Origin: a virus
Strand: one strand, 5' to 3'
Virus record (IMG/VR): IMGVR_UViG_3300020204_000053
Length of the DNA stretch: 64,000 nt
In this document: piece after piece, positions 20,473 to 21,430 of the stretch
How positions within the stretch are numbered: the first letter of the stretch is position 1
How the letters are laid out: the number at the start of each line of letters is the position of its first letter
Made by a program: the position numbers and the translations under genes
The notes under the pieces: model-generated
What the model saw: the letters and a program-made list of their open reading frames with translations, nothing else
Told to the model about the DNA's origin: nothing
Database searches by the model: none

Positions 20473-21430
20473 AAAACCCCAACCGTAAAAACGGTCAGGG
20501 TTAGGCAAAAAACTCTGAGAATACAAGTCTTGACAAGAGTCTTTAGGAGGATTATTTGGTTCCCTCTGTTTCCACCGTCTTTTGAACGGTAACTCTCAGT
20601 CACGGTCAATTAGATTAACCAATCCTTAAGTTGTCTGCAACTCTCTCCTTACTCATCACTCTTCGACCCTGCCGAGCCAATTCATCCTTGCGGGATTAGA
20701 GAACTTTCGTGAAAATCGTGTCGGGCTTGGGACCCTTCACGGCCGTGAACATCTCACGACTATGTAGTGACCTGTCACACACAACTGACGAGCACTTTTC
20801 CTTGATTTAATTTAATGTTTTGGACATTGATTAGACCAAAGTTGGTTTTACGGATTAGGAAGGTAGTGGCCCGTCTGAAGCCAAGTCATCTTTTGGATGA
20901 CACGATACTAAACTACCCTCTGAAGTGTCCCCACTTCCATATTTCGAGTCAACTTCATGACTAACCTCTTGGTAGAGATAAAGTCAAGGTCTCATCAGCA
21001 CCACCTGTTATGAAACTTACCTTGCCGGTGTTTAAGCCAACTCTAACATTGAACTACGCAATTGTGACAGTGGATACTATCATTTCTTACATAAGTTCTA
21101 CAGGTTACTCTTGTTGGTCTTCCGACCTCAACCAAACGACCCGAATCGCTTGGTCACCTCACCAACTTCCCTACAGTGTTACCCTCGGTACTAGAGGTGG
21201 TGTGATATCCTGCTTGCCTACTCAAGCTCCCTTTCGGAAACCGCAGACAACCCAAAACCAGGGTTATCCACTTTATACTACTTTCGTAGTTTATTTAACG
21301 ACCATAGGCGGCCAATATCTTGAGTCAAAGAACTTTTTAATTTGGAAGGAAGGGGACTTTTTACGACCCCAACCTTCCATTTGTTTCACAAAATTAAAAC
21401 AGTATTTGGAGACTGTCAAATTTTTTTGAA
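20473..21430. ncRNA. Candidate large structured non-coding RNA / non-coding GC-elevated island (about 950 nt, no credible ORF), adjacent to tRNA
   Basis: Local GC about 45-50% vs about 30% background; many short hairpins/palindromes (e.g. TTCACGGCCGTGAA, GGGACCC, ACCGTAAAAACGGT); the only ORFs translate to RNA-like compositions. Confidence 0.3.

Follow-up and report, generated by a model that had tools for sequence, protein, structure and literature searches.

The window analysed here, 64 kb of viral DNA (IMG/VR virus record IMGVR_UViG_3300020204_000053), carries on its minus strand, at positions 21315-20512, a complete gene of 804 nucleotides (nt) for the large phage RNA GOLLD, and this identity is near certain. 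We are highly confident of the combined reading, in which the GOLLD gene goes together with a predicted assembly of its product into a cage and a proposed translation-linked role. The family is already known and curated, and the copy in the window is an added member that Rfam detects trivially. When Rfam 15 was scanned across the whole window at gathering thresholds, two matches were obtained, one transfer RNA (tRNA) and GOLLD. The GOLLD match (RF02032) runs from 20920 to 20512 on the minus strand with 312.8 bits (E = 1.2e-88; gathering score 150) and covers the full model (positions 1-416 of 416). Repeating the scan over the whole window with permissive filters and E values up to 0.1 gave no match beyond the same two, and therefore ROOL, HEARO, OLE, introns, RNase P RNA and transfer-messenger RNA (tmRNA) are excluded. 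ARAGORN also found no tmRNA in the window.

The gene lies in a stretch of about 950 bp (20473-21430) beside a tRNA-Met(CAT) gene that had been proposed, from the letters alone, as a large ornate phage-borne non-coding RNA of the GOLLD or ROOL kind near a tRNA. This original prediction named an Rfam scan and covariation across homologous loci as its checks, and both came out positive: the former with the full-model GOLLD match at 312.8 bits, the latter across 40 loci. Several details needed correction. The accession of GOLLD is RF02032 and not RF01998; the strand of the RNA, which is the minus strand, had not been recognised; and at 804 nt the RNA is at or slightly over the upper limit of the 500-800 nt expected. 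Elevated guanine-cytosine (GC) content was borne out, but the excess is about 11-12 points rather than 15-20 (0.436 and 0.404 in two 500-nt intervals over the stretch and 0.445 over the RNA, with surroundings of about 0.32-0.33). All three palindromic motifs listed as signs of structure are present (Table 1), but only the first is a hairpin by itself. As a single sequence, the 804-nt RNA has a minimum free energy of -257 kcal/mol (z = -5.3 against 20 dinucleotide shuffles).

To place the RNA among its relatives, an exact-pattern scan of viral contigs was run with a conserved motif of the 5' domain. It gave 88 loci, of which 63 were confirmed by nhmmer, the source of the homologue profiles. Removal of near-duplicates left 40 distinct full-length RNAs, the window counted, which are 788-847 nt long and share sharp common ends. 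A genome-contig scan with the 5'-domain motif returned 120 loci, all of them chance matches and none GOLLD. On the 40-sequence alignment RNAalifold predicted 192 pairs, 131 of them with compensatory double changes, and such changes occur in most of helices 1-21, which make up the 5' domain. A 213-pair structure was further compared with shuffles and with partners slid by 1-3 columns. The share of cells paired was 96.9%, where shuffles gave 78.0% and slid partners 36-45%; both sides had changed in 144 pairs, against 105 and 51-76; and the covariation score was 0.571, against 0.200 and 0.07-0.11. None of 500 shuffles reached the observed measures, a margin that is still very large for a structure predicted from the alignment being tested and for controls that ignore phylogeny. 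In the 3' half, the predicted fold matches the structure curated by Rfam. A caution on the other side is that the homologues come mostly from one sub-family, that with an env-38-like 5' domain, and shared ancestry inflates the counts. The covariation nevertheless demonstrates support for the ornate two-domain fold of the GOLLD RNA.

An invariant complementarity was also seen between GAGUAGGC in the 5' domain and GUAUUCUCAG in the 3' tail, which one alifold run drew as a long-range helix (GAG/CUC; helices 5-6; A1 columns 116-118/980-982 and 122-123/975-976, in the window about 21219-21224 with 20514-20524). Because this pairing never varies, covariation can neither confirm nor reject the helix.

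The closest relative, found in two IMG/VR loci (L016 and L020), is 90.7% identical to the window over 885 nt (20467-21351) that comprise the RNA and its terminator, while the syntenic flanking protein genes are 65-76% identical at the DNA level, which indicates strong purifying selection on the RNA. A decayed protein gene, which had been listed among the alternatives, or an unrecognised one is a very improbable explanation. The stretch holds no credible protein gene, but a 139-amino-acid (aa) open reading frame (ORF) is mechanically present at 21010-21429 on the plus strand. This ORF is antisense to the covariation-supported RNA and conserved in 0 of 40 homologues, and the 91%-identical relative has just a 62-aa ORF, at another place. 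More generally, no ORF is conserved across the 40 sequences, where an intact protein gene had been expected if the prediction were wrong: the longest ORFs of the homologues, 41-121 aa, differ in strand, position and length. The substitutions are compensatory in helices and follow no codon pattern.

A degenerate group I or II intron, another ribozyme or a mobile-element remnant would be compatible in general terms with the size, the GC enrichment and the tRNA adjacency. We regard this origin as just as improbable as a protein gene: GOLLD and the tRNA are all that Rfam recognises to E 0.1, neither split exons nor terminal repeats flank the locus, and the RNA aligns over its full length with env-38.

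The RF02032 model spans only the conserved 3' half of GOLLD, and the full extent of the gene was accordingly taken from the homologues and env-38 (Table 1). The RNA begins with UUGGCCGCCUAUGGUCG at 21315 and ends with GUAUUCUCAGAGU at 20512. Its 5' domain precedes the 3' domain, within which lies an A/U-rich variable linker in the J13/15 region; ARAGORN found no embedded tRNA in this linker. An intrinsic terminator begins 9 nt past the 3' end of the RNA and is the sole terminator-like site within 20100-22000. It is kept in L016, where homology reaches 20467. Transcription would stop at this terminator (20502-20475), and GOLLD would be either co-transcribed with the tRNA-Met 262 nt upstream or made from its own promoter in the spacer between them. 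The spacer contains a strong GC-rich hairpin, read from the sequence, that is possibly a leader or a processing element. Together with a match to the Bacteroidota-type promoter pattern, TTTG-N20-TAATTTTG, the hairpin could serve a separate GOLLD transcript. The promoter signals are a weak side of the overall reading: the pattern has 5 matches in the window where 2.3 are expected, which makes it a weak match and a lead only, and a scan for sigma-70 promoters near the RNA gave nothing convincing. One sigma-70 match, TTGACT-16-TATGGT at 21328-21301, was rejected as a coincidence, for it lies inside the conserved RNA and would truncate helix 1.

The best-described relative of the window RNA is GOLLD env-38 (JCVI_SCAF_1096627009515/1239-410), an RNA of 833 nt with a 5' domain at 1-420 and a 3' domain at 421-833 (Kretsch et al., Nature 2025, PMC12286853). 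Its source is a marine metagenome, where a tRNA-Met lies upstream of it, and in cryo-electron microscopy (cryo-EM; PDB 9MEE) it forms a protein-free closed D7 14-mer cage of 38 nm, which assembles without protein at 12.5-110 nM and is stable at nanomolar concentration (PMC12286853). The two RNAs belong to one family, have the two-domain architecture in common and are about 63% identical over their full length (MAFFT). Both lie downstream of a tRNA-Met. They differ in length (804 against 833 nt) and slightly in the linker, the equivalent of which is disordered in env-38 and points into the cage interior.

The residues of the inter-subunit bridges B1-B10 were taken from the supplementary tables of the env-38 paper and mapped through the alignment. 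All ten contact motifs are recognisable in the window RNA and nine are intact, the motifs of B1-B3 and B5-B10 being alike in the two RNAs. The most telling contact is B7, the pairing of loop L20 with J13/15, which was first a covariation-predicted pseudoknot and became an inter-subunit bridge with the cryo-EM structure. B7 (helix 25) is Watson-Crick in 40 of 40 sequences, as GC:GC in 25, GG:CC in 7, GA:UC in 6 and UC:GA in 2; the window has GG:CC and env-38 GA:UC. The B8 loop reads CGCAAG in 33 of the 40, and the two most divergent sequences have UCGA, the GC-to-CG switch reported for B8. From these contacts we consider it likely that the window RNA assembles into an env-38-like cage. By homology to env-38 (PDB 9MEE), 14 copies would join without protein into a closed D7 cage of about 38 nm, in which the 5' domains would build the two caps and the 3' domains the equatorial rings. 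The kissing loops used would be UGGU with ACCA, the GG of J13/15 with the CC of L20, and the self-complementary GC of L21a and of L21b, and A-minor docking would be provided by the GAAA, GGAA and CAAAA loops.

Three points count against this assembly. Bridge B4 is weakened in the window RNA, with 3 contiguous Watson-Crick pairs (GGA/UCC) against 5 in env-38. The env-38 sequence was machine-read with letters dropped (816 against about 833), and the position of each contact was reset manually from the base identities in the supplementary tables. Finally, decamers are reported as the main form of a construct of the 3' domain from another GOLLD (review, PMC12990946), and 14-fold stoichiometry for the window RNA is therefore an extrapolation. 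The RNA might accordingly be GOLLD by sequence yet form no closed 14-mer in vivo, existing instead as a monomer, a smaller or open oligomer or a ribonucleoprotein scaffold whose loops contact protein or the ribosome. The weakening of B4 in the sub-family of the window, the variation between 14-mer and decamer among GOLLD constructs and the ribosome binding reported in pull-downs would all suit such a state. We nevertheless consider it unlikely, with nine of ten bridge motifs intact, with env-38 assembling free of protein at the concentrations given above, and with B7, intermolecular in the structure, covarying perfectly in 40 of 40 sequences, a pattern with no easy explanation other than use of the contact.

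ROOL is the other RNA with which a cage of this kind may be compared. Like GOLLD it is a large non-coding RNA of phages and prophages that occurs near tRNAs, forms an RNA-only cage and has an internal disordered linker (PMC12286853). It differs in its unrelated sequence and secondary structure, its length of about 580 nt and its octameric state, and it has no Rfam match in the window.

For the role of the RNA, its genomic neighbours are the main guide. The stretch had been placed directly 5' of the tRNA, but the order is the reverse: because both genes sit on the minus strand, the tRNA is upstream (5') of GOLLD. The location in phage DNA near a tRNA, a feature of the family, holds for the window, with the tRNA-Met 262 nt upstream on the same strand, and for the homologues, which come from viral contig collections. 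The window also encodes collagen and Peptidase_S74 fibre proteins of phage type. Bacterial initiator tRNA, as in E. coli tRNA-fMet, reads CAU in its anticodon, leaves positions 1 and 72 without a Watson-Crick pair and has three G:C pairs in a row where the anticodon stem meets the loop. The tRNA-Met of the window is initiator-like: besides CAU it has an acceptor (CGCGAGG/CCUCGCA) close to the E. coli CGCGGGG, with a C1xA72 mismatch and A73, but its anticodon stem (CAAGG/CCUUG) has only two of the three canonical G:C pairs.

Neighbourhoods were compared in two locus samples, the 40 loci found with the 5'-domain motif and 39 further distinct loci found with a 3'-domain motif, 79 in all (L001-L089, L213-L323). 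In the first sample tRNA and tmRNA genes share the strand of GOLLD without exception (234/234), and 34 loci have at least one such gene. In 15 loci, among them the window, the first gene upstream is a tRNA-Met no more than 800 nt away; in 9 others a tRNA-Met begins 9-16 nt past the GOLLD 3' end, and tmRNA genes are frequent neighbours. In the second sample 131 of 131 tRNA and tmRNA genes run in the direction of GOLLD. Any tRNA is present in 23 of these loci, with an initiator-like tRNA-Met nearest to GOLLD in 12, and 16 have no tRNA in the fetched DNA. Over both samples, 365 of 365 tRNA and tmRNA genes have the orientation of GOLLD. Of the 57 loci with any tRNA, 36 have an initiator-like tRNA-Met as the gene closest to GOLLD, at a distance of 25-668 nt where it is upstream and of 8-18 nt where it is downstream. 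In the first sample the adjacent tRNA-Met has an acceptor resembling CGCGGGG/CCCCGCA and A73, and lacks a strong 1:72 pair; 24 of 27 nearby tRNA-Met genes are initiator-like, whereas distant ones mostly have G1:C72. Given the tight spacing and uniform orientation, co-transcription and tRNA-type processing are a reasonable expectation for the GOLLD family.

Individual relatives resemble the window to different degrees. In L044 and L051 the gene order is NUDIX - tRNA-Met - GOLLD, as in the window. The best GenBank match to the RNA is in the 634-kb huge phage LR745206.1 (L001; Rfam 287 bits), where a tRNA-Met is followed by GOLLD 97 nt downstream. In many relatives a tRNA starts 6-18 nt past the GOLLD 3' end, in place of the terminator that the window has, and many carry 13-26 tRNAs and a tmRNA in an array, whereas the window has one tRNA. 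In phiCbK (L090), which with its relatives belongs to the Dolichocephalovirinae, an RF02032 match of 165 bits lies near an initiator-like tRNA-Met and a permuted tmRNA. The phiCbK GOLLD is much more divergent: a tRNA-Gly is embedded in its linker, its 5' domain is not detectably similar to that of the window, and its tRNA-Met and tmRNA are on the strand opposite GOLLD, unlike the same-strand tRNA-Met of the window.

During phage lysis the expression of GOLLD increases, and pull-downs reported that the RNA may bind ribosomes (PMC12286853). GOLLD is also known to occur in tRNA arrays, and the cage could hold cargo of tRNA size or larger; the literature assigns it no function. From the neighbourhoods, the cage would be part of a phage-encoded translation RNA set (tRNAs, initiator tRNA and tmRNA) in the lytic programme, with which its RNA would be co-expressed and co-processed, and it would enclose or sequester an RNA or a protein that serves translation or RNA turnover. 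This role as a whole is our own inference and speculative; within it, a place in the lytic programme with the translation RNA set is the most likely reading and the enclosure of such a partner a probable one.

Several facts run counter to this translation-linked role. The basis for the role is gene neighbourhood only. In 22 of the 79 loci the fetched DNA contains no tRNA, and in L016 and L020 no tRNA-Met is detectable in the approximately 1 kb between GOLLD and the NUDIX gene; since even the closest relative is without it, the tRNA neighbour is not obligatory and can be lost. The adjacency could then reflect a shared transcription and processing unit of structured RNAs, with a cage role unrelated to translation, such as a nuclease or defence decoy or a container for a small molecule or protein. 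We take this explanation seriously and put its chances only somewhat below even, the loci without tRNA and the co-orientation expected for any gene in a tRNA operon both being in its favour. It accounts less well for the preference for one kind of neighbour, with the initiator-like tRNA-Met nearest in most tRNA-bearing loci and in two arrangements, upstream and downstream, and for the trio of GOLLD, initiator-like tRNA-Met and tmRNA that is also found in the unrelated Caulobacter phage phiCbK, where it is divergently transcribed.

The genomic surroundings of the GOLLD gene, listed at the foot of Table 1, point to a large genome. For a neighbouring 472-aa DHH-like protein the only relatives are in uncultured phages whose genomes measure 630-735 kb, and many GOLLD-bearing IMG/VR contigs are 100-480 kb long. 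The flanking genes (12 kb) had no match when GenBank phages were searched by megablast. We infer that the window is probably part of a very large phage genome. The cobalamin adenosyltransferase, DnaJ, sigma-70 factor and Band 7/SPFH genes are unusual in ordinary phages and fit a very large phage genome. Blocks with 50-57% GC and a strong T skew are due to three collagen-repeat genes; together with the glycosyltransferase fusion and the oxygenase these genes suggest hydroxylated, glycosylated collagen-like virion fibres. The GOLLD stretch had also been described as the longest in the window without a credible ORF, but at a cut-off of 100 aa the longest is 3606-4943 (1338 nt). Within it, 3859-4650 is an ORF-poor region of about 790 nt with a GC content of 0.39-0.43, G runs and C runs. 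Its several inverted repeats include one with 23-nt arms (4349-4371 and 4399-4421), and neither Rfam nor GenBank phages gave a match to the region.

Table 1. Coordinates of the GOLLD gene, its parts, predicted cage contacts and neighbouring features in the 64-kb window.
Feature	Position	Strand	Remarks
Complete GOLLD RNA	20512..21315	minus	804 nt; ends set by alignment to 39 full-length viral homologues and env-38
GOLLD 5' domain	20921..21315	minus	RNA nt 1-395; outside the Rfam model; aligns to env-38 1 to ~420 and 39 homologues
GOLLD conserved 3' domain	20512..20920	minus	RNA nt 396-804; the RF02032 match
A/U-rich variable linker (J13/15 region)	20804..20858	minus	55 nt, within 3' domain; 39-68 nt in homologues
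Intrinsic terminator	20475..20502	minus	12-bp stem with 6 G-C pairs, 4-nt loop, then UUUUAUUU
GC-rich hairpin in tRNA-GOLLD spacer	21344..21378	minus	GGAAGG..GGGG / CCCC..CCUUCC; 29 nt upstream of GOLLD 5' end
Candidate Bacteroidota-type promoter	21389..21420	minus	TTTG-N20-TAATTTTG; start ~70 nt upstream of GOLLD
tRNA-Met(CAT), initiator-like	21578..21650	minus	ARAGORN and Rfam; 262 nt upstream of GOLLD; single tRNA in window
Bridge B1, A-minor donor	21281..21286	minus	CGAAAG, GAAA tetraloop (env-38 G33-A36); GAAA invariant 40/40; closing pair covaries
Bridge B2, 'daisy chain' at cap pore	21176..21186	minus	GAGGGUAACAC (env-38 G140-C146/U150); nearly invariant
Bridge B3, A-minor donor	21119..21124	minus	CGGAAG loop (env-38 G201-A204)
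Bridge B4, kissing loop, first half	21070..21076	minus	UAUCCAC (env-38 U251-U258)
Bridge B4, kissing loop, second half	20926..20932	minus	GGGGACA (env-38 A409-A415)
Bridge B5	20999..21005	minus	GGUGGUG with invariant UGGU (env-38 U339-U342)
Bridge B5 partner	20968..20974	minus	UACCAAG with invariant ACCA (env-38 A369-A372)
Bridge B6, A-minor donor	20890..20896	minus	loop L14 CCAAAAG (env-38 A447, A448); CAAAA invariant
Bridge B7	20800..20801	minus	GG in J13/15 (env-38 G546, A547); pairs with loop L20 in 40/40
Bridge B7 partner	20729..20730	minus	CC in loop L20 UCCCAAG (env-38 U617, C618)
Bridge B8, symmetric	20687..20692	minus	loop L21a CGCAAG, self-complementary GC (env-38 G656, C657)
Bridge B9, symmetric	20669..20674	minus	loop L21b CGGCAG (env-38 G675, C676, A677)
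Bridge B10, A-minor donor joining half-cages	20579..20585	minus	UCAAAAG loop (env-38 A763, A764)
Palindrome ACCGTAAAAACGGT	20482-20495		tip of terminator stem; own hairpin
Palindrome TTCACGGCCGTGAA	20736-20749		helix junction, where the 3' strand of a hairpin meets the 5' strand of its neighbour; no hairpin (Rfam alignment)
Palindrome GGGACCC (RNA strand GGGUCCC)	20729-20735		5' stem strand and first loop bases of L20 (Rfam alignment)
Segment matched in relatives	20467-21351		L016:1434-2314, L020:9649-10529; RNA and terminator kept
2OG-Fe(II) oxygenase	12312-13007	minus	
Band 7/SPFH protein	19568-20125	minus	
NUDIX hydrolase	21902-22426		
PduO-type cobalamin adenosyltransferase	22679-23218	minus	165 bits
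DNA methylases	26545-27414 and 52509-53348		
Three tandem collagen-repeat (G-X-Y) proteins	35765-44620	minus	928-1048 aa; C-terminal Peptidase_S74 chaperone domains
PLOD-type glycosyltransferase / GT25 / methyltransferase fusion	48033-50795	minus	
Full DnaJ	53616-54542	minus	
Sigma-70 family factor	63050-63850	minus	

GOLLD is among the largest orphan RNAs of bacteria and phages; the structure of its 14-mer was solved in 2025, and its function is unassigned in the literature. By itself the locus in the window adds little, its Rfam score being twice the family threshold. Its use is that it places a full-length env-38-type GOLLD in an apparent huge-phage genome, with a full-length gene definition and 79 independently collected viral loci that show conservation or covariation of the cage contacts. 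In the literature that could be searched, no link between GOLLD and initiator tRNA is described. The 36 of 57 initiator-like neighbours, the frequent tmRNA and the recurrence of the trio in the unrelated phiCbK may point to a functional tie of GOLLD to translation initiation and ribosome rescue, beyond co-location with tRNA genes; we judge such a tie improbable at present. If it were true, the cage could store, shield or deliver the phage initiator tRNA or tmRNA, or it could capture ribosomal particles during takeover, and the 3' ACCA ends of tRNAs could open the invariant ACCA/UGGU contact between subunits. The recurring neighbourhood of GOLLD, initiator-type tRNA-Met and tmRNA thereby points to binding and deletion experiments.

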